From Candidatus Thorarchaeota archaeon (GTDB lineage Archaea; Asgardarchaeota; Thorarchaeia; Thorarchaeales; Thorarchaeaceae): 64,000 nucleotides of DNA. The position numbers and the translations under genes were made by a program. The notes under the pieces were generated by a model. The model made no database searches. It was not told the DNA's origin and saw only the letters and a list, made by a program, of their open reading frames with translations. The stretch spans positions 44,049 to 108,048 of the forward strand of contig JAGSHN010000005.1 in the NCBI GenBank assembly GCA_029855935.1. The letters are read 5' to 3'. Below are positions 10,621 through 56,408 of this stretch, piece by piece; positions within the stretch are counted from its first letter, which is position 1; the number at the start of each line of letters is the position of its first letter.

Positions 10621-12939
10621 GTGGAGCGCAGACCTGATACAATAGAAATGCCGCTGATTCGACCGAATACAATCGAGTACAGGGAATATCAGGTCAACTT
10701 GGCCAGGATTGCAGCCGAAGAGGACACACTGATAGTGCTCAGCACAGGACTTGGAAAGACCGTCATAGCAGCCCTTGTGGCCGCAATCCGGCTTGACAGG
10801 TTCCATGACTCACAGGTCCTCTTTCTCGCACCCTCAAGACCTCTGGTGGACCAGCAGGCGAGATTCCTGAGAGCCGCACTCACGCTCCCTGAGAACAGCG
10901 TCATTTGCCTCACAGGACAGGATGGTCCTGCCGCGCGGCGAGATAAGTGGGACACAGCGAGAGTCATCGTGATGACGCCACAGGCGCTACAGAACGATCT
11001 CGTCCAAGGGAGCTACGACCTTGCAGATGTATGTCTGATAGTGTACGATGAGGCCCACCGCGGCGTTGGGAACTACGCGTATACGTTCATCGCGGGGATG
11101 TATGAGAAGCAGGGGATCCACCGACGGTCTCTCGGCCTCACAGCATCCCCGGGGAGCGATAGCGAACACATCCGTACCGTGTGTAGCAATCTCCGACTCA
11201 AGAGGGTGGAGGTCAGGGACCATAGCAGCCCGGATGTCCGGCCATACGTGGTAGGGGTGAATACGGACATCAAGTATGTACATCTCCCATCGGAGATTGA
11301 GGTGCTTCGGGACATGTTGTACGATCTGCTAAAGGTCTATCTCGCTCCGTTGAAGAACTACGGCTACACCATCTCCGACCCAAAGAGACTCGGCAAACGG
11401 GAGATACTGGACCTTCAGATGCAGATTCGAAGGGAGATAGGAACGTACACGAAACCGCCGCGCCATCTCTTCACTTTGGTCAGAAACCTTACGGCGGCTC
11501 TTCGCGTGAACAGTCTTCTTGAGTTCGTCGGAACTCAGGGCCTACTACCAACATTCCGATACATCCAGGGAATATACGAAGAGGTGAGGAATAGGAGAGG
11601 GTCCAAGGGGGTAAAGGATTTGATATCAAGGTCAGAGTTCCGGGAGTTCGAGAAACTCCTGCAGGCCCTGATAGCTAACGGGATGCGACACCCCAAGGCG
11701 GACCTCCTGCTGGAGATTGTAGAGGAGCAGCTCTCTATCAATCCTGACTCTAGAATACTTGTCTTCACACGATACCGCGACACAGCATCAGAAGTAGCAG
11801 AGATAATTGACAGTCTCGATGCAGCACGCGTGAGCAGGTTTGTCGGCCAAGGTTCTCGGTCGCTCGACAAGGGCTTTACTCAGAAGAAACAAGTGGAGGT
11901 GCTGGACGCATTCAGGCTGAACGAGTTCAATGTTCTCGTGGCCACGCAGGTGGGTGAGGAGGGGCTCGATATCCCAGAGTGTAATCTAGTGGTGTTCTAC
12001 GATTGCGTACCGTCAGTCGTCCCGTTCATTCAGAGAAAGGGACGCACTGGCAGACGTACTCCTGGCCGAGTCGTGATCTTCGTTGCGAAAGGCACCCATG
12101 ATGAGTACTACTACTGGAGCGTCAAGAACAAGCTCAGGCGTATGAGTTCCACTCTCAGAGAGGTGGGAGAGATTGTGGAGGAAGAGAAACAGACAAGAAT
12201 TGACGAGTTCGAGGAAGAGGCCGCGCCAGCCATTGAGAGGGAACCAACTGAGAGAGCCAGCCAGACGTTTCGGGCCAAGTTGATAGTAGACACGAGGGAG
12301 ATGCCCACAGCAGTGGCCAGAGAACTGGCTAGGCTGGACGTCCAGATTGTCGGAGAGCAACTCCAGATAGGAGACTATGTGGCCTCAGAGGAGGTGGCCA
12401 TCGAACGCAAGGATGTGGGCGACTTTGTGCAGTCCCTGATTGATGGCAGACTCTTCTCGCAACTGACATCACTGAGAGCAGCGTATCGGAGGCCAGTCCT
12501 AATAATCGAAGGGGAACAACTTCTGGGACAGAGAGCCGTGAACCCGGCGGCAATCTTCGGTGCCTTGGCCTCCATTGCCATCCGCCTCCAAGTCCCAATA
12601 CTGTGGACTAGGTCTCCAGAGGAAACCGCCCTTCTACTCTACCGAATAGCAGTCATTGAGCAGAGAGAGGAACGGAGGACCCTGAGGACACGCGCTGCCG
12701 ATTCTAAGGCGACAGATGCAGAGGTCCTTGAGTATATATTGTCAGGCTTTCCAGGCGTTGACACTGTGATATCTCGTGCCCTCCTAGAGCATTTTGGAAC
12801 TCTGGAGAACGTGTTCAATGCCGAAGAGAGAGAGTTGCGCAAGGTCAAGGGGGTCGGCCCCAAGACTGCCAGCTCAATCAAGAGGCTATTGAGAACGAAG
12901 TATCCTTTGTACGGAGAGAGTCGGTCGGCCGATCAGTAG
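10621..12939 (+). CDS. hef: Hef helicase-nuclease (FANCM-like SF2 helicase + XPF/ERCC4 nuclease + HhH)
   Basis: TGLGKT, DEAHR, TASPG, QRKGRTGR; VDTRE, GDY, IERK; HhH repeats. Confidence 0.95.
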   Translation: MERRPDTIEMPLIRPNTIEYREYQVNLARIAAEEDTLIVLSTGLGKTVIAALVAAIRLDRFHDSQVLFLAPSRPLVDQQARFLRAALTLPENSVICLTGQDGPAARRDKWDTARVIVMTPQALQNDLVQGSYDLADVCLIVYDEAHRGVGNYAYTFIAGMYEKQGIHRRSLGLTASPGSDSEHIRTVCSNLRLKRVEVRDHSSPDVRPYVVGVNTDIKYVHLPSEIEVLRDMLYDLLKVYLAPLKNYGYTISDPKRLGKREILDLQMQIRREIGTYTKPPRHLFTLVRNLTAALRVNSLLEFVGTQGLLPTFRYIQGIYEEVRNRRGSKGVKDLISRSEFREFEKLLQALIANGMRHPKADLLLEIVEEQLSINPDSRILVFTRYRDTASEVAEIIDSLDAARVSRFVGQGSRSLDKGFTQKKQVEVLDAFRLNEFNVLVATQVGEEGLDIPECNLVVFYDCVPSVVPFIQRKGRTGRRTPGRVVIFVAKGTHDEYYYWSVKNKLRRMSSTLREVGEIVEEEKQTRIDEFEEEAAPAIEREPTERASQTFRAKLIVDTREMPTAVARELARLDVQIVGEQLQIGDYVASEEVAIERKDVGDFVQSLIDGRLFSQLTSLRAAYRRPVLIIEGEQLLGQRAVNPAAIFGALASIAIRLQVPILWTRSPEETALLLYRIAVIEQREERRTLRTRAADSKATDAEVLEYILSGFPGVDTVISRALLEHFGTLENVFNAEERELRKVKGVGPKTASSIKRLLRTKYPLYGESRSADQ

Positions 12940-44880: not shown

Positions 44881-47800
44881 CTACCTAACACTAATGTAAC
44901 CTAGATTTTCCCCTACTCGTACACCAGATATGTGCGGTATTTCGGGCCTTGCTAACGCGAAACACCTCATGCGTTGATGATCCGGCCATATCCACGATTC
45001 TTCACGACGAAGATAGAGCAGGATTTCGGCTAACTTGTTCTTTGAGAACCTGCGTAGTGATGCCAAATCAAGGGGATGATCCTCAAAGAAGAACTCAAAG
45101 ATCTTCCCCCAATCACGGGTTGTCACAGGATAGACGTGACTATGATCTTCAATCAAGAGGGCAATCGGTGTGCCGGTTTCGTCTTCAAGCAGACGTACCG
45201 GCAGTGTTCTATTGCTCGCAGTGTGTGCGGCCTCCAGTTTCTTTAGTAAAGGATTTCCTATGCTCACGAAGTCATCATCAACGGGATCGACACTTACCCG
45301 CTCGCCCTCGATCTCGACTGTTGATTTGCTCTCAGACCTAACAGCCAGCCCAGACTGCACCGCAGCCCGCTCAATGACACGAATGAGATGAGCATACGGC
45401 GACTTGTCAATAATAGTTTGAACATCTTTCGAGTCGGCATGGAGGATCTGGTTCTTCCTGTATTCTGCCCTTGCACGTTCTATCTCTTCCAATGTGAGAT
45501 TCACTATGGGAACCCTGCCATCTGCAAGCGATGAAATGACTCGCTTCTGCTGATCAGTGAGTATTTCGGGAACTTGGCCCACGACAGCCCTGAAATCGGT
45601 TCTCCTATCTTCTAGGACTCTGTACATCCTCTCTTCAATCGAATTCGGATAGTATAGGTTTATCAAATAGACATCTTTGGCCCTCTGTCCGAGCCTGTCA
45701 ACTCGTCCAAACCGCTGGAACAGCATAGCGGGGTTCCAAGGCACATCAACGTTTACCACTTCATTTGCATAGTGAAGATTCAATCCCTCGCTTGCTGCAT
45801 CGGAACAGACAAGGACCCTTATCGACCCCCTCTTCAGCAAGCTAACGATGTCCTTTGGGGAACATTCGTGCAGTATTGGCCTTGTCCCATCCCATGCATA
45901 GGTCCCGACACACTCGCCATCGTATCGGCCCACCCCAAAAGTGTCCACGAGCACTCCAAGCATCTCGATGATGGCGTCGGTCGTCGAAGTGTACCTGCTA
46001 AACACAAGAACTTTTCTGCCTCGTGAAACGTGGTCTGACAAGATCTGCCTCAACCCTGTCATTTTCGGGTCCACCAATTGGCCACCGCTCTGAAACGCAC
46101 GTTCGATTAAGTCCAAGATTCGTTGAACTGCGTAAAACTCCGTTTTGGCCCTTTGGACTGAAACGTTGCTTAGTTCACCATTGGAGGCGTCCATATCGTA
46201 CTCAAGGTCGCTGTCCAGTTCGTTTTCACGTTGATCGTTTCCAGTCAACGGAGAGAAACAACCACGATCTACGATTGACTGAAGATACTCTTTTCTGCGC
46301 CGCAGTGTGTCAACTGCGGCTCTGATTGAAGAAACAATCCTTTGCCTATACAAGCTTCGCACAAGCCCAGTCCTGTTTCCATAGTACGACTCTGCATAAG
46401 CGAGATGTCTGCTGACGAAGTCCTCAAGTTCTTGGAGGAACTCTTCCTGCTCCTTGGTGACATTGATTCGTGGACTATACAAGTGGGGAGTTGGAAAGCG
46501 GTATCCAATGCTAGATAGGGTTATTCTTTCGCTCCTTACTGCCAAGAACGTAGCGGGATGTGTGGCAATCACAACTTCTTCTGGCAACGGCCGTACTTGC
46601 CGTGCAATCGTTTCATAGAACTTGGTATCTTTGTCGCATTTCTCAGTGGAGAAGCACTCAAGAGGCCCCACCAGACCGTGTCTTTCGCCCAGTTCATATT
46701 CTTGGGCAAATTGATGAATATATCTGAGGTGAGTTACTACAGTGCTCAATACACCGTGTGGGATTTCGCCTCGAAACCACCTTGAATAGTAGTCCAGTGC
46801 CTCTTTGAAGCCCTCAGGGACACCAAGGATATCTAACAGGGAGTAGTAGTCCATGATGTTCGTCTGGTAGGGCGTAGCTGTGAGGAGAAGGATATGCGGG
46901 ATATGCCTCTGCATATCTTTCAGTAGTTTGTATAGCCGTGTTGACCGCCCGTCTGAAGTGTCATCATGAATCCTGGCGTGATGCGCCTCATCAACGACGA
47001 GAAGGTCTGGCATATCTTCCAGATCAAGTTGGGGATTGCTTCGTGAATCACCTCTTAGCCAGTGCCAAGACATGATCAGCAGATTAATTCCGTTATCGCA
47101 ACGGAAGGGCTTTCTCCCTACTTGTATTGAGTCCAGATCGGTTTGACAAGTCTGGGTTCTCGAGTCATATACCCAGAAGTTCAGGCCAAATAATTTCTTC
47201 AGTTCCTGCTGCCATTGTTTCATAAGAGAAGCTGGTGTGAGTATGAGAACGCGACGGACACCGCCGAAACGCAGCAGATAATGGATGATAGACCCAGCCT
47301 CAATCGTCTTGCCTAGTCCAACTTCATCCGCAAGAAGAATCCTGATTGGCCATCTGCTTAGAGCTTGGACATACGCGTGGATTTGGTGCGGTAGCAAGCC
47401 CACATAAGGAAACGCAAGCGCACAATAAAGAGGTGAGCGCGAAACCGCGTCCGCGAAAGAGGCCCAAGAGATCCAATCTTGTCCCTCATTACTGTCAGTG
47501 CGTGCTTCGATGGGGGCGTGCTCAACCATTTGTGTTGCGGTGGAGCCGACTCTGTTTTTGCGAGATGTCAAAGCATGGTTGTATTCATCAACTACAGCAC
47601 AGAACTCGTCCGTAAAAGGCATGGTTTCAACATCAGAACTTACGCAGTTCCACATCTCCTCGAAGCGCTTCAAGAAGTATTCGCTTACTTCTCGCTCATG
47701 CGGAATCCAAGAGCGGTGCAGAACAGCATCTTCAATATTCTTTGTAAGACCCCTTACCGACTCGTTCACAGACCCAGTTATGACAGAATATCTCAGCCCT

Positions 47801-48393
47801 TGTCGGCGCCTTAGAGAGAGAGACTGGTAGTACCGTCTACCAGCCCAGCTGAACAAGCGCCAGATCTTCGATCGTATTTGCCGAGGCTCTCTATCGTTGC
47901 CCTCATGATGGATTACCATGAACTTGGAATGGAACAGGGCAACTTCGGGATTGGGCCAAGTGCCATGTCTTTGATAATAGTCTATGTTAGCCCTTGGCGT
48001 TACCAGTCTAACCTGCATGGCATGTTGATTGAACATCTCCCGGAGTACTGATAGAATGTCACCGCTCTCTTGACCAAGAAGAGTCAAGAGTTCTTCTGTA
48101 TATCCTCTCAGAGCCTCTGCGACTGCTCTCTTTACAGCATCTGTGACTGTGAGGCCGGGCCGGAGAGCAGGTACAACGGCCTTTGACTGGTGAAAGCCAA
48201 CAATCAATCTTACGAAGCCACCTCGTTTCCAAATCGCAGCCAGCTCCCGGAGCAAAATGAGAAGCGAGTAGGGATCATAGAATGATGTGACACGGTCGTA
48301 CTGATAACCTTCCCGCAAAAGAGGCCCGATCATTCTCCTATAGATCTCTTCTCCACGTCCACTAATGGCCCGATACGGGGGACCTGATGTCAT
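44881..48393 (-). CDS. SNF2 (RapA/DrmD-like) helicase with N-terminal PLD-like nuclease domain
   Basis: PLD: FHSKF...TGSVNE. SNF2: LADEVGLGKT, DEAHH, TATP, SEGLNL, PWNP..QRFGRVDRLGQ. Start uncertain (48393-48453). Confidence 0.9.
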   Translation of the reverse strand: MTSGPPYRAISGRGEEIYRRMIGPLLREGYQYDRVTSFYDPYSLLILLRELAAIWKRGGFVRLIVGFHQSKAVVPALRPGLTVTDAVKRAVAEALRGYTEELLTLLGQESGDILSVLREMFNQHAMQVRLVTPRANIDYYQRHGTWPNPEVALFHSKFMVIHHEGNDREPRQIRSKIWRLFSWAGRRYYQSLSLRRRQGLRYSVITGSVNESVRGLTKNIEDAVLHRSWIPHEREVSEYFLKRFEEMWNCVSSDVETMPFTDEFCAVVDEYNHALTSRKNRVGSTATQMVEHAPIEARTDSNEGQDWISWASFADAVSRSPLYCALAFPYVGLLPHQIHAYVQALSRWPIRILLADEVGLGKTIEAGSIIHYLLRFGGVRRVLILTPASLMKQWQQELKKLFGLNFWVYDSRTQTCQTDLDSIQVGRKPFRCDNGINLLIMSWHWLRGDSRSNPQLDLEDMPDLLVVDEAHHARIHDDTSDGRSTRLYKLLKDMQRHIPHILLLTATPYQTNIMDYYSLLDILGVPEGFKEALDYYSRWFRGEIPHGVLSTVVTHLRYIHQFAQEYELGERHGLVGPLECFSTEKCDKDTKFYETIARQVRPLPEEVVIATHPATFLAVRSERITLSSIGYRFPTPHLYSPRINVTKEQEEFLQELEDFVSRHLAYAESYYGNRTGLVRSLYRQRIVSSIRAAVDTLRRRKEYLQSIVDRGCFSPLTGNDQRENELDSDLEYDMDASNGELSNVSVQRAKTEFYAVQRILDLIERAFQSGGQLVDPKMTGLRQILSDHVSRGRKVLVFSRYTSTTDAIIEMLGVLVDTFGVGRYDGECVGTYAWDGTRPILHECSPKDIVSLLKRGSIRVLVCSDAASEGLNLHYANEVVNVDVPWNPAMLFQRFGRVDRLGQRAKDVYLINLYYPNSIEERMYRVLEDRRTDFRAVVGQVPEILTDQQKRVISSLADGRVPIVNLTLEEIERARAEYRKNQILHADSKDVQTIIDKSPYAHLIRVIERAAVQSGLAVRSESKSTVEIEGERVSVDPVDDDFVSIGNPLLKKLEAAHTASNRTLPVRLLEDETGTPIALLIEDHSHVYPVTTRDWGKIFEFFFEDHPLDLASLRRFSKNKLAEILLYLRREESWIWPDHQRMRCFALARPEIPHISGVRVGENLGYISVR

Positions 48394-48412
48394 CGGATGT
48401 AGACCCCCAGCT

Positions 48413-49111
48413 CTATACATCTTCGAGTAGGTCAAAATGTCTGTATTCGTCAAGGAAATCTTTGACTATCGCAACCGCTTCGGGGTATTCTTTCTGTAAC
48501 GCAGGTGAGGTAAACACGCCAAGGCCGAGTTCAAAGTCGTGAATTATTGCACGTTCCAACCACATCAGTTGGGACTCCGAAGCATCATGCCTCTTTATGG
48601 TCATTAGCAGTGATCGAAAACGCTTCGTAATGGTGCCATTGACAATATCCTTGTCCTTGAGTAACGAACTTACAGCGGCCCAGTATTCCCTGTCGATCCG
48701 ATCATATAGGTCACGGATGCGTAATCTCCAGTTACCATTCTCTACAAAATCAATGATATTGGAGAGAGGTCGTTCCCCCTTCAACAAGTCATCAAGATGC
48801 TCGTAGACAACGGTGCGAACCACCGGATGCAGCAACATTAGTGTTCGAATAACTCCCGTGTCCAGGTTCTTTTCAAGCAAGATTCGTCGCTCATCATCAC
48901 TACACTTACGCAATTCGAAATACATCCGAACAATCTGGGGCGGTACGGCAAACGCTTGCGACAGAAAGTGTTCATTTGGCAGCCCGCCATGGGAGGTGTG
49001 AAGGTCATATCCCATCTCAATGACCCGATCTTCAAACGTGTGCAGCCGTTCCAGTATGGACTTGCTGTCATCCATCAGACCGTAGGGATCCCGAATGTGG
49101 TCAGTCGTCAA
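48413..49111 (-). CDS. Hypothetical protein with ParB/Spo0J-like HTH segment
   Basis: TTG at 49111 overlaps the upstream stop, directly after a GGGGTGAGG purine tract; segment LSQAFAVPPQIVRMYFELRKCSDDERRILLEKNLDTGVIRTLMLL. Confidence 0.6.
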   Translation of the reverse strand: MTTDHIRDPYGLMDDSKSILERLHTFEDRVIEMGYDLHTSHGGLPNEHFLSQAFAVPPQIVRMYFELRKCSDDERRILLEKNLDTGVIRTLMLLHPVVRTVVYEHLDDLLKGERPLSNIIDFVENGNWRLRIRDLYDRIDREYWAAVSSLLKDKDIVNGTITKRFRSLLMTIKRHDASESQLMWLERAIIHDFELGLGVFTSPALQKEYPEAVAIVKDFLDEYRHFDLLEDV

Positions 49112-50720
49112 CCTCACCCCCATAAAGGGTTGCGTGCCACTTATTACGCAGCGACAAGGCATAGTTGGGATCCACTGCCATCTCATTTACTAGACAGAAA
49201 TATAGTGAGTCAACAATCGCCCAATTTACGATAAGACACGATATTTTCTCATCACCTTCACGGACTGCCCATTGCCAAAGCGCGGAGGCCGTATTCACAA
49301 AGACACACATTTCGTCGGACTCCGGCCTATAGCTGTATTCCCAGAACAATGAGGGGTCATCGTATTGCGTCTGGGCTACTGAAATCAGCAGCCGACGACT
49401 ATCGTCAATCGGGACACAGTTCGTAGTGTCAACATCTCCACCCGCCGCAGTTTCAGAAAAGTCCTGAGAGAGTAAGGATACGGCTTGTTTCGCGGCGCGC
49501 CTGAGACCTTGAATGATCTTGCGTGACTTTGCCCCTCCGTCGGTCGATGCACGATACTCCTTTGACGCTTTCAACATCCGCTCAAGGATTGGCTGTAGTG
49601 CTCTCTGTGCGTCCTTCCACGACTGCAGCTCCGTATTCCATCCGACCTTCGTAAAATTAGGATCACACATGTCGAGGTGTACCTCGCCGTGTAATCGGGC
49701 ATATGTTGGATGTGGTCTCTTTGGCAGTAGCCCGTTCTCATCAGGACCAGCCTTGTGAAATGCTTCGACCAATTGCCCCTTGCGAAATGTGTGGATACCC
49801 CAGAGACCAGAACCCGAGGCACTCGTCTGACGAAGAGCCAGCCAGCCCCTTATTTTCATAGGTTCTCCTCGCTGTCCGCCCCCATAGTCTGGACGGGCCA
49901 CTAGGTCCAGTTTGTCGAGAATGACCTTTGTTCCCGGTACAATAGGAATTTCGTCTGGCTCACAAGGAGCTAGTTCCCGCTCATTTCCTGAACTGTTATC
50001 AACAATAATTATCTTGATGTTATGATACTTGATCTCAGGCGAGAAATTTCGGCCGAGTTCTTCTCTCCATATCTCAGGCCTATGATGACGCTTGTGAAGA
50101 TGCTCAATACGGATGTACGTACCGCTCTCTAGGCTGCCAAGAGGTCCACCAAGATCCGGTTCCTCGGAAACGCGGCCAATGATGCTGCCTAACTTCAAAT
50201 GTCCGTTCTCGATTTCGTGGGTATCAATCTCTATCGAACTCTCCGTTCCATCTATAAGCGATCTAGTGCGGATCGCAAATTTCCAGCCAAGACCAAGAAT
50301 CCCAACTTTCATACCCATTCCGTACATTCCCTTTCGGGACCGGAGGGGTATCCTCCGCTCATCAGAGGCGCCCCTAAGACGGAGAGCCATCTCCAGCTCG
50401 TCCAGTGTCATACCGATACCATTGTCCCAAACCTCAATGCTGTCGCCGTTATACCGTATCTTGATGACAGTTTCGGCGGGGCCAGCATCAATCACTCTGC
50501 GATATCGCCTGACGAATTCTTTGACATCAGGAACACCACGTTCCATATCCTCTTTGATGCGCAGGATCTCGTCTGCGCTGGGCCTTCGCCAGTCCAAAGC
50601 GTTTGCTACAAGCTCGGACAGGCATTGCACCACGCCAATATTTAGGGCTCCAACTCCACGAGGTGTGAAGATCCTATCATCGGCCGTGATGTCGAGCTCC
50701 CGTTCTTTGAACCCCACCAT
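49101..50720 (-). CDS. MORC-like GHKL ATPase (HATPase_c_3 + S5 fold + C-terminal domain)
   Basis: LSELVANALD (N box), VWDNGIGM (G1), GMYGMGMK (G2), GTYIRI; S5-like RLHGEVHLD..PNFTK. Confidence 0.85.
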   Translation of the reverse strand: MVGFKERELDITADDRIFTPRGVGALNIGVVQCLSELVANALDWRRPSADEILRIKEDMERGVPDVKEFVRRYRRVIDAGPAETVIKIRYNGDSIEVWDNGIGMTLDELEMALRLRGASDERRIPLRSRKGMYGMGMKVGILGLGWKFAIRTRSLIDGTESSIEIDTHEIENGHLKLGSIIGRVSEEPDLGGPLGSLESGTYIRIEHLHKRHHRPEIWREELGRNFSPEIKYHNIKIIIVDNSSGNERELAPCEPDEIPIVPGTKVILDKLDLVARPDYGGGQRGEPMKIRGWLALRQTSASGSGLWGIHTFRKGQLVEAFHKAGPDENGLLPKRPHPTYARLHGEVHLDMCDPNFTKVGWNTELQSWKDAQRALQPILERMLKASKEYRASTDGGAKSRKIIQGLRRAAKQAVSLLSQDFSETAAGGDVDTTNCVPIDDSRRLLISVAQTQYDDPSLFWEYSYRPESDEMCVFVNTASALWQWAVREGDEKISCLIVNWAIVDSLYFCLVNEMAVDPNYALSLRNKWHATLYGGEVDD

Positions 50721-51002: not shown

Positions 51003-51392
51003 CTAGCTAGGGTCCTCAACCTCAACCTCGATGTCACGTATGAAGAACTCCTTACCTCCAATGATCTCTGTGGCACTGCTCCCACAACGCGGGCATTTCA
51101 TTGGGGCAAAGACGGCGAGTTCAGGAGGTAGGCTCGAATCAGACTGGCTCTCACCCTCGAACCCGCAATCCTCGCATTTCAGGCGACCAGGTACAGGAAC
51201 TATGTTCAATTCAGCGCCCTCAAGGAGCGTATTCTGAGATGCGATTTCGAAGTTGAATTTCAGCTGTTCGTGAACAAGGAATGTAAACTCCCCCACCTCA
51301 ACATTGACACGATTGACCCGTCTTACAGGATGCTCCTGTAGTGCACTGAGTGCTAGCTCTACCAAGGACATTACTGCCGCAAGCTCGTGCAT
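51003..51392 (-). CDS. hypA: Hydrogenase nickel chaperone HypA
   Basis: MHE start, CEDC...CPRCGS, GGKEF. Confidence 0.95.
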   Translation of the reverse strand: MHELAAVMSLVELALSALQEHPVRRVNRVNVEVGEFTFLVHEQLKFNFEIASQNTLLEGAELNIVPVPGRLKCEDCGFEGESQSDSSLPPELAVFAPMKCPRCGSSATEIIGGKEFFIRDIEVEVEDPS

Positions 51393-51512: not shown

Positions 51513-52370
51513 ATGAGAGGTCCTGTACCGCGTCCCATCGTCAAATGGGCTGGAGGCAAGGCTCAGCTACTTCAGGAGCTGGAGGATAACCTTCCAGCCT
51601 CATTCGGTACGTACTATGAGCCTTTCTTTGGTGGGGGCGCACTCTTCTTTCATCTCTCAGCCAAAGGAGTAGTGAGGCGGGCAATCCTTTCAGACCTTAA
51701 TAGAGATCTTATGAATCTCTACACGGTGGTAAGAGATAATGTAGGGGACCTGATTACAGAACTGGCATCAGGGAAGTACAAGAACGAGAGAGATGTCTAC
51801 TACAAGATCAGAGGAGAGGAGCCAACAGACCCCATCAAGAGAGCTGCAAGATTCATCTACTTGAACAAGACCTGCTACAACGGACTGTACCGTGTCAATG
51901 CTGCAGGGAAGTTCAATGTCCCGTTTGGCAGATATCGAAATCCCAAGATCCTAGATGCGGAGAACCTGAGAGCTGCGAGCCAAGCCCTGCAGAGAGCCAG
52001 ACTATTGATTTCCGATTTTGAGGATGCAGTGCGTTCAGCCAAGGCAGGAGACCTTGTGTACTTCGATCCGCCGTATGACCCAGTGAGTGACACAGCCGAC
52101 TTCACATCATATACAGAGAGAGGGTTCGGAACCGAGGAGCAGAAGCGTCTTGCAAGAGTATTCAGAGAGCTTGACGAACGGGGTTGTTTCGTACTTGAGA
52201 GTAATTCATCCACCGAGTTCATCACGAGGCTGTATTCAGACTATCACATCGTACAGGTGTTTGCGAAAAGAGCAATAAGCTCCGACGCCTCCACAAGGGG
52301 GCCCATCCAAGAGCTCATAATAAGAAACTATGAGATCACCACCCCCCAGACACGCATTGATGAGTTCTAG
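51513..52370 (+). CDS. dam: Dam-family DNA adenine methyltransferase
   Basis: KWAGGK, EPFFGGG, NGLYRVN..GKFNVPFG, YFDPPY. Confidence 0.95.
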   Translation: MRGPVPRPIVKWAGGKAQLLQELEDNLPASFGTYYEPFFGGGALFFHLSAKGVVRRAILSDLNRDLMNLYTVVRDNVGDLITELASGKYKNERDVYYKIRGEEPTDPIKRAARFIYLNKTCYNGLYRVNAAGKFNVPFGRYRNPKILDAENLRAASQALQRARLLISDFEDAVRSAKAGDLVYFDPPYDPVSDTADFTSYTERGFGTEEQKRLARVFRELDERGCFVLESNSSTEFITRLYSDYHIVQVFAKRAISSDASTRGPIQELIIRNYEITTPQTRIDEF

Positions 52371-53869
52371 GTCCGCTTGTGATAGATGAGGAGATAGTCA
52401 TGAGTGATACTGAGAGGGGCCATGGGAGAGGTCGGTACTGGCGGATTGTCATTAGCCACAACCACAATTTCGCGAATATCGAGTGCTGGAATGGGCTCTC
52501 GCCAAACTTCAAGGGCAGGGCTAACAGTCATCCCGTCTATCCTGAAGTCACGAGTGTGAATGACGAGATGACCTCCAGGAGCGACCCGCTGGATGCCGTG
52601 CCGGATGGCCATTCGAAGCGCATCCACATATTTCCTGATGCTTGAGGGGAGAATGGACTCCATAGATGATGACTTGATATATACTAAGTCGACTGGGAAC
52701 TCATCTGGTTCAACGCAGTTTCTGATAGACGGAGAAACCACAATCTCTAGAGTATCGGAGTCGCCCCCATATCGATAAGTAACATTCTGATCCATCAGAG
52801 AGGACTTCTCTGTACAAGGGAGAATCCAAGTCGTCTTACACTCGACCACAGGGGGCTCCAGGTGGGTGGAAATGTAGCGATAGTTGATCCCCACATCCTG
52901 TCGCATTTCATCCGGGATGAGTGAAGTAGTTGGAGGCACAGTAGGATGGGATTTCACGAACACAGCTAGATATTCGTGGGATAGTAGAAGGAAATTATGT
53001 TTCACACTGCGGGAATACCAGAAGCCAGTTGTACGACAGTTATGTTGCCGCTTGATTATCAGATCCTTGAGAAGAAAGCCTTCCCGGAGAAATGTTTCGA
53101 TTGTCTGAAAGCCCAGAGGCACAACGTGTCGGTGTTTGCGGAGATCCCCAATCAGAATTGCAGCATGCCCCAAGGATTTCAAGACGCGATAACATTCTCC
53201 AGCCACCACCTTCATACTCTCGACGAATGCGGTGGGATCCTGAAGCGATAGGTCGTTCTCAATACCTGATGTATACCGGACAATGTTGGCGTAGGGCGGA
53301 TGTGTGCAGATCAGGTCAACGGTCCCGTCATCAATACAACGAAGGTCAAGCGCGTCACCGACCTCTACACAGGGTTCGTACGTCGTTGGCGGTGTTTCAC
53401 TTGTCAGCGTCGTCTGCATAGCGTGGCCGAAGTCCAAGTTCTTCCTCGTAAGAAGAATCGCAGCAGGGTTTATGTCCAAGGCGATGCACCTTCGTCCTAG
53501 AAGCTTGGCCTCTATGGCGGTGGTTCCTCCACCACAGAACTGGTCTAGGACGAGGTCACCCGGGGAACTGTATCGCAGAATTATGTTTCTTGGAATGTAG
53601 GGGGACCAATTTCCCCGATAATTCCCGGAATGTGTCGCCCATTTGCCGCGTTGTCTGAAGCTCCACACGGTGGTGGTTTCCAAGTGAAAGTCCTTTGGAG
53701 CGTAATGAGTGATCTCCTGTGGTCGGAAGAGATTGAGATTAACACCTGTCTTCTCAATTATGGCCAGCTCAATCTCTCGAAGACTTACCGAGAACTTGCT
53801 CATTATCGCCTCATCAGACATCCCGCGCATCTTGGCGGCAAGAATCTCGTCACTGAGGCTGCGGCTCAC
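52367..53869 (-). CDS. Amino-(N4C/N6A) DNA methyltransferase with N-terminal HTH and degenerate second MTase domain
   Basis: DQFCGGGTT (motif I), THPPY (motif IV); the C-terminal third repeats the fold without the catalytic motifs. Confidence 0.85.
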   Translation of the reverse strand: MSRSLSDEILAAKMRGMSDEAIMSKFSVSLREIELAIIEKTGVNLNLFRPQEITHYAPKDFHLETTTVWSFRQRGKWATHSGNYRGNWSPYIPRNIILRYSSPGDLVLDQFCGGGTTAIEAKLLGRRCIALDINPAAILLTRKNLDFGHAMQTTLTSETPPTTYEPCVEVGDALDLRCIDDGTVDLICTHPPYANIVRYTSGIENDLSLQDPTAFVESMKVVAGECYRVLKSLGHAAILIGDLRKHRHVVPLGFQTIETFLREGFLLKDLIIKRQHNCRTTGFWYSRSVKHNFLLLSHEYLAVFVKSHPTVPPTTSLIPDEMRQDVGINYRYISTHLEPPVVECKTTWILPCTEKSSLMDQNVTYRYGGDSDTLEIVVSPSIRNCVEPDEFPVDLVYIKSSSMESILPSSIRKYVDALRMAIRHGIQRVAPGGHLVIHTRDFRIDGMTVSPALEVWREPIPALDIREIVVVANDNPPVPTSPMAPLSITHDYLLIYHKRT

Positions 53870-53987: not shown

Positions 53988-55115
53988 ATGGAGGAAGAGG
54001 CAGAGGCGGGTGTCTTCGTCACCCTCTACGACCGGGAAACTCTTGAGATCTACCTCAAGAACGGTGTATACGGGACGTTGATGCCTCCAGTTGACGGAAT
54101 GACGCTTTCCCGCACTAGACATTTTCATACTCTCGGAGACTATTCATGCCTCCGTGGAGGTATGCACTTGTTCTTCTTCTTGAAACGGTTCATAGTCTAC
54201 GGCGGGCGTATCAAGGGATCTAAGAAATACGGGGCGTTCTATTTGAATGGCATGCAGAGCCCACTGGGAAAAGCGGCAGAGGCGCCATTGGTGTGGGACG
54301 AGTCAAATAGAAGTAGATATACACCAACCAGTGAAGAAGGGCTCTTCGAAGTACCAGATGCTGGCCGACGCTGCCAGCCGTACTTGGTTCTGTTTGATGA
54401 TGATAGTGGACTGAGAGGAAGAAAAATCCGGTCTGATGAACTCTATTTCAAACTAGGGAGATTTCCATATCCACTACCCTCAAACTCTATCCAGGGAATG
54501 AGCTTCTGCGTTCTCACACCTGGTGAAACTGACATACTGTTGGATCTCATGAACATGAGCGATGAGGTAGTCGACTATGCGAAAAGCCAAGAAATGAGGC
54601 TCGAAGACACGCCCACACCATTTCATCCAAAATGGGGAATTGGCAGTGTGAAGGAGGCGTACGAAGCTTACGAACTCTTGAAACAGAGGCATAGAGGTCG
54701 TGAAACAGAGGCCTTACTACGAGGTGACGTGCTCATAAATGAGGCGCATCTGGAGGCATCTGTTTTGGCCAACCCTGAACTGCTTCCCAGGGAGATGCAA
54801 CCGCGCAACCATACTCTTAGCAGGCAAGTTCCTATCTCACCCTTCAAACCGTTTCAAATGGATAGAGCGGACATCTGCTACTATTCAAGAGAGGCCCCCA
54901 TCGGCAATGGCACTTTGCCTAGTGTCATCATCGAATTGAAGATGAAGCAGGCAGGCAAAGCAGAAGTGGAGCAAGTCGAACGCTATCTGGATTGGCTATT
55001 CTTAGTTAGGCCAGAAGAGGCACGCCAAGTTCGTGCATTTCTGTATGCTCCAATGTTTTCAAGAAGAGCTGAGGTAACGAAACATAGGGGACAGGTCAAC
55101 CTCATTACCTTCTAG
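53988..55115 (+). CDS. Putative restriction endonuclease: EVE/PUA-like N-domain + NucS-like PD-(D/E)xK domain
   Basis: NEAHLE...DRADI...IIELK...QVERY; N-terminal ETLEIYLKNGVYG...LRGGMHLFFF. Confidence 0.65.
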   Translation: MEEEAEAGVFVTLYDRETLEIYLKNGVYGTLMPPVDGMTLSRTRHFHTLGDYSCLRGGMHLFFFLKRFIVYGGRIKGSKKYGAFYLNGMQSPLGKAAEAPLVWDESNRSRYTPTSEEGLFEVPDAGRRCQPYLVLFDDDSGLRGRKIRSDELYFKLGRFPYPLPSNSIQGMSFCVLTPGETDILLDLMNMSDEVVDYAKSQEMRLEDTPTPFHPKWGIGSVKEAYEAYELLKQRHRGRETEALLRGDVLINEAHLEASVLANPELLPREMQPRNHTLSRQVPISPFKPFQMDRADICYYSREAPIGNGTLPSVIIELKMKQAGKAEVEQVERYLDWLFLVRPEEARQVRAFLYAPMFSRRAEVTKHRGQVNLITF

Positions 55116-55199: not shown

Positions 55200-56408
55200 G
55201 TGATGGTATGGGATCTTATTATCGCCGGGGGAGGCCCGGCCGGTGCAACCTGTGCACGGAGAGCAGCGCAACTCGGCCTTGACGTGCTCCTAATCGAGAA
55301 ACAGAATCACCCACGCAGAAAGGCGTGTGGCGGTGGACTGACTCCGCGTGTTGGAGATGCACTGGACTTGGACTTCTCGCCCGTGGTCGAGAGGGAACAA
55401 GGAGGACTCAGACTGTTCTCGCCATCGGGCCTCGCAGTCACCGAGAAACGGGCGGAGCTCACTGGCTACTTGGTCAGAAGAGAGGACTTCGATCACCTCC
55501 TGTTGAAGAAGGCAGAGGAGGCGGGGGCAACCGTATTGGAGGGGATCACCGTTCTGGACGTCATAGAGACCAGCAGCGGTGTTGATGTCGTCACCGATGA
55601 CAAGACGTACACTGCACGACTGCTTGTGGGTGCGGATGGGGTCAACAGTACTGTGGCACGAAGAACGCAACTCAAGCCGAGGTGGAGAGATGACGAGATC
55701 TGCCTGTGCATAGAGGCCTCGGTGCCTATGGACTCATCAGACATTGAGAGGATATTTGCTATTCCAGACAGCAGTGGTAGGGTCTTCATCGAGATCTATT
55801 TTGGCGCCCTGCGACACGGTTATGCGTGGGCCTTCCCGAAGAGAGAAGAGATCAGCCTGGGAATTGGGGTCCTGGTCAGCGAGCTTGAAGACCTTAGGGG
55901 CGTGTGGAAACGATTCGTTGCATCGTTTGAGGACAGATATGGTGTGAGGGTTGACCTTTCAAACACAACAGCAGCGCGTGTGCCGCTCAAGGGCCCCATC
56001 AAGAACACTGTGACGAAGCGAGTGATGCTGGTCGGTGATGCTGGGGGCTTTGTGTCACCCGCCACTGGTGAGGGGATATACTACGCTATAGAAACTGGCA
56101 GGCTTGCGGCAGAAGTCTCCAAGGAGATACTGAGTGGTGCAGAGGGTATGACGACGCAGACCTATCAGCAGAGATGGAGAAGAGCGTTCGGGAAAGACCT
56201 TGATGTCGCGAACTTCCTAGCAGGCATGATGTTCCATTCCATCGAGAATATGGAGGCGGTCTGCAGGATGGCACATGACGACCCAGTCATGCGCAGTCAC
56301 ACGTTCGAGATGATCACTGGAGCAGTGACTTACAAGGAGTCCAGGAACAGACTGATCAAGAGGATGTTGCGAAAGCATCTTGGGACTGCCGTCAAGATGG
56401 TGTTGTGA
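55200..56408 (+). CDS. Geranylgeranyl-reductase-family flavoprotein
   Basis: GGGPAG, KACGGG, GADG, GYAWAFPK, VGDAGGFVSPATGEGI. Confidence 0.9.
   Translation: MMVWDLIIAGGGPAGATCARRAAQLGLDVLLIEKQNHPRRKACGGGLTPRVGDALDLDFSPVVEREQGGLRLFSPSGLAVTEKRAELTGYLVRREDFDHLLLKKAEEAGATVLEGITVLDVIETSSGVDVVTDDKTYTARLLVGADGVNSTVARRTQLKPRWRDDEICLCIEASVPMDSSDIERIFAIPDSSGRVFIEIYFGALRHGYAWAFPKREEISLGIGVLVSELEDLRGVWKRFVASFEDRYGVRVDLSNTTAARVPLKGPIKNTVTKRVMLVGDAGGFVSPATGEGIYYAIETGRLAAEVSKEILSGAEGMTTQTYQQRWRRAFGKDLDVANFLAGMMFHSIENMEAVCRMAHDDPVMRSHTFEMITGAVTYKESRNRLIKRMLRKHLGTAVKMVL

Follow-up and report, generated by a model that had tools for sequence, protein, structure and literature searches.

A PIP-like C-terminal tail on a Dam-family methyltransferase of an inserted, likely defensive cassette in a Thorarchaeota genome

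The window analysed here, a stretch of 64,000 nucleotides from the 2.97-Mb, 97% complete genome of a Candidatus Thorarchaeota archaeon, encodes a DpnM/Dam-family adenine methyltransferase (hereafter Dam; 51513–52370, + strand) that ends in a motif resembling the PCNA-interacting (PIP) box. Its gene is part of an insertion with a patchy distribution, a cassette that is likely defensive. The explanation we favour, and hold to be fairly probable, is that Dam would be the clamp-tethered, self-marking methyltransferase of a three-gene defence cassette, with its tail docking on PCNA.

The 285-residue protein belongs to the D12 (alpha) class of adenine methyltransferases (PF02086, E = 3.5e-66), and in a profile scan it scored 300 bits against TIGR00571, exceeding the curated family cut-off of 115, with motifs X/I and DPPY intact. 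It was the only PF02086 gene in the source genome, and its closest named relatives among the best 120 of 7999 matches were Thorarchaeota. The best solved relative was DpnM (2dpm; E = 4e-68), to which residues 7–274 aligned; this alignment stops one residue short of DpnM's own end, so the last 11 residues of Dam appear to lie beyond the known fold. The original prediction had described the end of the protein as a PIP-box-like tail, and positions 52347–52370 (+) do translate to QTRIDEF and a stop at the end of the 285-residue ORF. The motif (residues 279–285; 52347–52367, +; from translation and alignment) sits in a terminus outside the folded domain, as judged by the alignment to DpnM, with Q279 at position 1, I282 at position 4 and the aromatic F285 at position 7. 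The second aromatic of the classical PIP consensus (position 8) is missing, the chain ending at position 7; this makes the motif less canonical but not less PIP-like, because one-aromatic boxes bind PCNA in Hef/FANCM. In Thermoplasma acidophilum Hef, such a C-terminal box (residues 502–508) binds PCNA with a KD of 1 μM, and binding is lost in I505R/F508S (PMC4838364); like it, Dam has a seven-residue, one-aromatic Q-x-x-I-x-x-F at its extreme C-terminus, outside the fold. The convergent gene downstream overlaps only the last 4 bases of Dam, and the tail is therefore not forced by the overlap.

The same heptapeptide had also been claimed to lie, with different codons, in the linker of the Hef helicase-nuclease, and FEN1 had been claimed to end in QSSLTDFF. 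Both peptides are where they were said to be. Hef (10621–12939, +; NF010337, 818 bits vs a cut-off of 610) carries QTRIDEF at 12190–12210 (+; Hef residues 524–530), between the helicase Pfam match, which ends at residue 479, and the ERCC4 domain, which starts at 556, while FEN1 (960–1994, −; TIGR03674, 453 bits vs a cut-off of 352) ends in the canonical two-aromatic PIP box QSSLTDFF (963–986). The codons differ at two of the seven positions but not at all of them, and 18 of 21 bases are identical. A six-frame scan of the 2.97-Mb genome found QTRIDEF at only two sites, the Dam tail and the Hef linker, compared with ~0.0009 copies expected from residue frequencies in an ORF set of 891,400 residues. 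Across relatives, the Hef linker motif was present in 26 of the 27 loci in which the region was locatable (30 were fetched), with Q at position 1 in 26, L/I at position 4 in 26 and F/Y at position 7 in 26, and no second aromatic was seen; the one-aromatic form is thus the lineage norm at this linker. The exact identity of the two peptides becomes less remarkable if both belong to one lineage-wide motif, and we infer that the two agree because both follow the PIP consensus of the lineage, with no special link between Dam and Hef.

Conservation of the tail was assessed in the best 120 of 7999 matches to Dam, drawn from 8000 scored candidates. The pattern Q-x-x-[ILM]-x-x-F ended the window's own Dam and the next 16 homologues (63–84% identical), with variation at positions 2, 3, 5 and 6, and an 84%-identical orthologue had the very same heptapeptide; in 14 aligned Dam sequences Q279 was invariant and F285 was kept in at least 90%. 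The strict form Q-x-x-[LIM]-x-x-[FYW] occurred within the last 20 residues of 18 of these best 120 homologues, own protein included; when the tails were shuffled 2000 times, the count averaged 1.75 and never exceeded 7. This excess overstates independence because the homologues are related. A looser pattern was found in 19 of the best 120, and the C-terminal motif was absent from 101. Among the seven class genomes with a close Dam, three had the full motif, three a truncated Q-x-x-L and one neither; the full motif is therefore not universal.

A tree built by a quick method from 118 of the 120 rows placed the tailed homologues in ~7 distinct lineages; the tail-trimming rule fails on some rows of a large, distant clade, whose tail labels are thus unreliable. 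The clade next to the tailed one (10 rows) had mostly truncated Q-x-x-L ends. A clade of nine rows (support 100; two members named Heimdallarchaeaceae), sister to the C-terminal-motif clade on this quick tree (support 91), had no C-terminal tail and carried an N-terminal extension of 34–39 residues, with the strict motif in seven of nine and a near variant in the other two. An N-terminal motif was also present in all six family-f5 genomes with a Dam match (start codon checked for all but two). Counted over the best 120 rows, the N-terminal motif occurred seven times, which is not above the shuffle maximum of 8. Other conserved C-terminal extensions were seen on homologues in the P0042–P0118 clade (some named Micrarchaeia) and on P0111, P0113 and P0120; their Q-x-x-L or Q-T-L cores fall outside the strict pattern. 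The conservation pattern, position and relocation of the motif, together with the published one-aromatic precedent, give good support to its description as PIP-box-like, and on this sequence analysis the Dam tail very probably acts as a PCNA-binding PIP motif.

Within the source genome, 24 of 2584 mechanically called ORFs ended in the motif, and 11 of these, picked by eye, were profile-scanned. Five were NreA, the DP2 subunit of PolD, a Hel308-like helicase, FEN1 and a FEN1-like protein; two, a RuBisCO-like protein and an ABC substrate-binding protein, are unrelated to DNA; three had no match; and the last, encoded on contig C3, was an unrelated DNA methylase of the beta class. Only 2 of ~18 candidate DNA methylases in the genome carry the motif. 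Of 120 homologues in the family of the C3 methylase, 12 had the strict tail (mean 0.85 and maximum 6 on shuffling), which indicates that the tail is optional there too. The C3 gene itself (G000:C3:39417-40553, locus L032) is convergent with another methylase, and its family both gains and loses the tail, with many truncated forms.

The original prediction went on to propose that coupling to PCNA would make Dam a domesticated host gene rather than a restriction-modification (R-M) component, and the distribution and setting of the gene argue against this. A close Dam, taken as a PF02086 match at E ≤ 1e-45 in 87 genomes of the class, was present in 7 of 87 and in 5 of the 24 high-quality ones; for comparison with core genes, PCNA was found in 45 of 46 genomes of the family and Hef in all 27 of those examined for it. 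No intact Dam match was found in four congeners (66–98% complete); one of them, G003, carries at a different locus a Dam copy whose coding sequence is broken into three frames, perhaps through faulty assembly. In the window, the insertion is flanked on the left by hypA (51003–51392, −; PF01155) and on the right by a geranylgeranyl-reductase-like gene (55200–56408, +; labelled from sequence motifs). In congener G001, rps8e, hypA and the orthologous reductase gene (78% identical) are contiguous, and the hypA and reductase matches lie ~230 bases apart, vs 3.9 kb in the window, so that the cassette is absent in G001. A 6.4-kb stretch with the SNF2 island is likewise missing in that genome. A separate three-gene insertion on the other side of hypA (44881–50720, −), encoding a GHKL ATPase, an unknown protein of 257 residues and a PLD-SNF2 helicase, is absent in G001 and adjoins Dam in G005; with 34 GATC sites in 5.8 kb it lies above the genome average in GATC density. 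The cassette genes have a GC content of 49–51%, vs 54–56% in flanking and measured core genes, and the neighbourhoods of Dam differ among relatives, with no fixed position among core genes. Among the sequencing runs listed as containing the stretch there was none of RNA and one of DNA; the DNA reads, possibly of the source run and thus not independent evidence, matched the window stretch without differences and contained no joint that skipped the cassette.

What does accompany Dam is a second methylase and a nuclease. The second amino-methyltransferase (52367–53869, −; 500 residues; PF01555, E = 8.7e-28; PADLOC MTase_II PDLC03376, E = 8e-81), in which motif I precedes HPPY, is convergent with Dam, overlaps its stop by 4 bases and adjoins Dam in nine other genomes (G016, G032, G035, G011, G005, G040, G081, G087 and G244). 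An inserted loop of this protein holds a Q-x-x-L half-motif without an aromatic (residues 152–155; 53405–53416, −). Six forms were aligned; the half-motif was present in all four long ones and was lost with the loop in the two short ones, and it is a possible weak clamp site.

The third gene (53988–55115, +) encodes a protein of 375 residues predicted to join an EVE/PUA fold to a NucS-like PD-(D/E)XK nuclease (AlphaFold pLDDT 94.4; structure model built from an alignment). The model matched 1wmm (Z 10.9, rmsd 3.2, 129 aligned), VcaM4I (6yex; Z 10.5, rmsd 4.1, 144 aligned) and NucS (2vld; Z 11.7, rmsd 2.8, 103 aligned), the residues of catalytic type (D292, E316, K318, Q329 and Y333) were kept in at least 90% of 55 sequences, and both a PUA-superfamily domain and an intact PD-(D/E)XK domain appear to be present. 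On the model, the protein is a candidate restriction component. In 4 of the 87 class genomes, and in G244 as well, the gene was found, each time next to both Dam and the second methylase; the one further locus in the genome collection, in a Deltaproteobacteria record, adjoins a methylase and a MutH-family gene. In all, the family lay next to methylases at five of five Asgard loci and at the one bacterial locus examined. At E ≤ 0.001, 114 relatives were found in a set of sequences reduced to representatives at 50% identity. Fusions of EVE with PD-(D/E)XK domains have been proposed as type IV restriction enzymes (PMC7641849), and EVE-nuclease fusions are described as generally modification-dependent, with a DNA methylase within 3 kb in <6% of 350 cases of PUA-superfamily nucleases (PMC6765204). 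Because EVE fusions are rarely near methylases, the neighbouring family is atypical and could be a partner or a passenger. The nuclease's own Q-x-x-L-x-x-F end was considered and rejected as a PIP box: it forms the last beta strand (pLDDT 98), and this C-terminal pattern was matched in only 3 of 49 full-length relatives.

The specificity of Dam is likely GATC. Its Y-N-G-L-x-R and N-V-P residues, which we take to be those of the target loop, align with EcoDam and DpnM. Annotation to the D12 family does not in itself prove GATC, because M.CbeI, annotated as D12, makes m4C in GGCC (PMC3425538). Relatives of Dam lie beside genes for DpnII (G032, G048), MutH-family (G081), BglII (G005) and DUF7226 (G005, G011, G076) proteins, a setting that speaks for a site of the GATC type and for descent from an R-M system. 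The source genome (G000, 97% complete) had no matches to DpnII, MutH or DUF7226 family genes; for this reason, and since EVE fusions generally depend on modification and rarely lie near methylases, Dam may lack a cognate restriction enzyme here. GATC was depleted genome-wide (observed/expected 0.57); this was rejected as a sign of GATC restriction either way, since relatives without a close Dam were equally depleted (0.47 in 192 kb, vs 0.52 in 40 kb with Dam). The genome contained no dense GATC cluster, the best being 8 sites in 300 bases. The most depleted 4-mer genome-wide was CATG (0.41), and CTAG stood at 0.62; both were less depleted in sampled loci of relatives (0.82 and 0.94, respectively), and the depletion may mark resident R-M specificities.

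Two congeners without Dam carry a different kind of domain. Next to rps8e, G001 encodes a nuclease that joins PLD to a winged helix of the DpnI type (L189:1272-2045), and fusions of this kind are reported to be toxic in Dam+ E. coli (bioRxiv 10.1101/2023.06.07.544091); the G001 protein is of a family that targets methylated GATC. The DpnI-type winged-helix domain was found in 4 of the 87 class genomes (G001, L189; G002, L195; G026, L197; G012, L198), all four without a close Dam and two of them, G001 and G002, congeners. The domain (DpnI_C) and Dam never occurred in one genome (4 and 7 of 87), which is not significant, the expected overlap being <1. Closely related genomes thus appear to have opposing relations to GATC methylation, a pattern that defence genes would be expected to show, although four cases are too few for a statistical test. 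A DpnI/DpnII-like alternative at one hotspot is possible.

A different arrangement was observed in family f9. In a survey of 301 phylum genomes at E ≤ 1e-70, Dam matches were found in 53, including 35 of the 68 genomes of f9. No C-terminal motif was present in any of the 35 f9 Dams examined, and 14 had an N-terminal motif, several with two aromatics; 13 of these 14 need a TTG or GTG start, and in the long forms the N-terminal PIP-like motif follows a TTG start. Within 1.5-kb flanks, 20 of the 35 adjoin the same AAA ATPase and/or PFL-like gene (loci L147, L150–L162, L164, L165, L167, L168, L170 and L171), nine with the motif and 11 without. The stand-alone f9 Dam with an N-terminal motif is a better candidate for domestication than the window's Dam. 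It is possible, if doubtful, that Asgard archaea repeatedly attached PCNA-docking motifs to Dam, C-terminally in one clade and N-terminally in others, that f9 reached a stand-alone, replication-coupled Dam with a fixed place in the chromosome and often a two-aromatic N-terminal motif, and that the cassette in the window represents the mobile, defensive start of this path. If so, the prokaryotes most closely related to eukaryotes would have DNMT1-like maintenance methylation of adenine, achieved in f9 with an enzyme of a different class.

For the window's locus, we favour tethering of a self-marking methylase to the clamp, which would work as follows. The tail peptide would bind the PCNA pocket like the same 7-mer architecture in Thermoplasma Hef, and clamps remaining in the wake of the fork and at sites of repair would concentrate Dam on hemimethylated host DNA, where it would re-methylate sites (probably GATC) on newly made strands. 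Host DNA would be favoured over incoming, clamp-free DNA, sharpening the marking of self and non-self, and incoming DNA, methylated more slowly, would stay cuttable. Cutting would fall to the EVE-NucS-like nuclease, or would have fallen to a restriction enzyme that the genome no longer has. Docking on the clamp does not conflict with a role in defence.

Three other explanations were weighed. The one raised by the original prediction, that Dam is a domesticated orphan that maintains methylated GATC sites at the replication fork, as its gammaproteobacterial counterpart does or in the manner of DNMT1, agrees with the conserved PIP-like tail, with the lack of DpnII, MutH and DUF7226 genes in the genome and with the state of f9 (Dam in 35 of 68 genomes, 20 of 35 in a shared neighbourhood and 14 of 35 with an N-terminal motif). 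For the window locus, however, it is contradicted by presence in only 7 of 87 class genomes, by the lack of an intact match in any of four congeners and the empty site in G001, by two congeners with a domain type that senses methylated GATC, by the absence of a dense GATC cluster and by the constant association with a nuclease and another methylase; we consider it very unlikely there. It is rather unlikely that the tail binds PCNA for some other purpose, be it titration or turnover, re-marking at repair patches or the stability of a selfish cassette without a restriction partner. That the motif is optional and often truncated would fit such a role, as would the lack of a classical GATC restriction enzyme in the genome; moreover, hemimethylated GATC resists MboI, so that rapid methylation at the fork may be of minor importance. 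Nevertheless, the repeated gain of the motif, at either end and in two unrelated methylase classes, is most simply explained by targeting to replicating or repaired DNA, and the usual PIP clients are enzymes acting on DNA (PMC4929162).

The remaining explanation, which we regard as unlikely, holds that the tail is no functional clamp motif at all, having been inherited in one clade, and that its likeness to Hef is a coincidence or a short copied stretch. The relatedness of the homologues, with only ~7 distinct lineages among the tailed rows, is in keeping with this, as are the 18 of 21 bases shared with the Hef stretch and the occurrence of the pattern at the end of RuBisCO-like and ABC substrate-binding ORFs and in a beta strand of the nuclease. 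Yet only positions 1, 4 and 7 are conserved among variable ones, the sister clade and f9 carry the motif at the other end of the protein, the 84%-identical orthologue has the same heptapeptide, and the shuffle controls were exceeded for both methylase families.

Both parts of the proposed arrangement, the PIP box and the DpnM-type enzyme, are already known, and the new elements are the lack of the cassette at its site in G001, the nuclease of opposing type in congeners, the relocation of the motif between N- and C-termini and the f9 candidate. Dam resembles DpnM (M1.DpnII) in being paired with a second amino-methylase and in having relatives beside DpnII-family enzymes, whereas DpnM ends where its fold ends, without a tail. 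Unlike in the DpnII cassette, the window genome has no DpnII-family endonuclease, the nuclease is an EVE-NucS fusion and, in the second methylase, motif I precedes motif IV. The pneumococcal DpnII and DpnI cassettes are alternatives, a situation mirrored by the DpnI-type winged-helix nuclease of Dam-less congeners; unlike those cassettes, the alternative genes of G001 lie one gene away, on the hypE side of rps8e, and not at the same site. EcoDam is of the same family, with aligning target-loop residues; unlike it, the window's Dam scores 199.5 vs an E. coli equivalog cut-off of 441, is not lineage-fixed and has no MutH. Eukaryotic DNMT1 is brought to replicating DNA by a PCNA-binding PIP box, but it differs in enzyme class and in base (5mC vs a predicted m6A), so that the likeness is an analogy and not homology. 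The neighbouring nuclease shares its domain architecture with the EVE-PD-(D/E)XK candidate type IV enzymes, and, unlike published PUA-superfamily nucleases, its family is steadily found beside methylases; the locus thereby draws attention to a family of EVE-NucS nucleases with an unusual association with methylases.

The ability of R-M methylases to keep pace with the fork is usually credited to diffusion and enzyme dosage. A clamp-docking tail would be a simple physical answer to the problem of methylating at the pace of the fork while sparing invading DNA; if this is correct, defence methylases would join the list of archaeal PCNA clients, and PCNA-coupled DNA methylation, thought to be eukaryotic, would have arisen several times in Asgard archaea. 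Unlike Hef or the clients NucS and NreA, Dam is a methyltransferase of a patchy cassette and not a core replication or repair enzyme. The nearest published statement is that, in P. abyssi, a putative adenine methyltransferase co-purifies with PCNA and NucS; the passages covered describe no PIP box on it (PMC4929162). In searches of the openly available literature aimed at links between methylases and the clamp, we found no report of a PIP box on an archaeal DNA methylase, although subscription papers, supplements, REBASE and early PCNA screens may mention such motifs; the passages covered of PMC11529989 and PMC7776575 contain nothing on methylase PIP boxes.

Several further observations concern PCNA and other proteins with PIP-like ends. 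The host PCNA is encoded by a single gene (G000:C17:15661-16410), and two tandem PCNA genes were seen in three genomes of genus g5 (G023, G032 and G081). A DUF2797 protein of the source genome (G000:C15:25674-26747, L028) has a two-aromatic PIP-like end and is a candidate new PCNA client, and a second, divergent FEN1-like gene, which scores under the family cut-off, also has a PIP-like tail (G000:C4:181584-182561, L034). Finally, a B12-binding radical SAM gene with a PIP-like end lies near the Dam cassette in G011 (L041:3312-4604) and G035 (L038:13804-15137); in G035 the PIP-like end sits in the ORF that follows the B12/radical SAM ORF.
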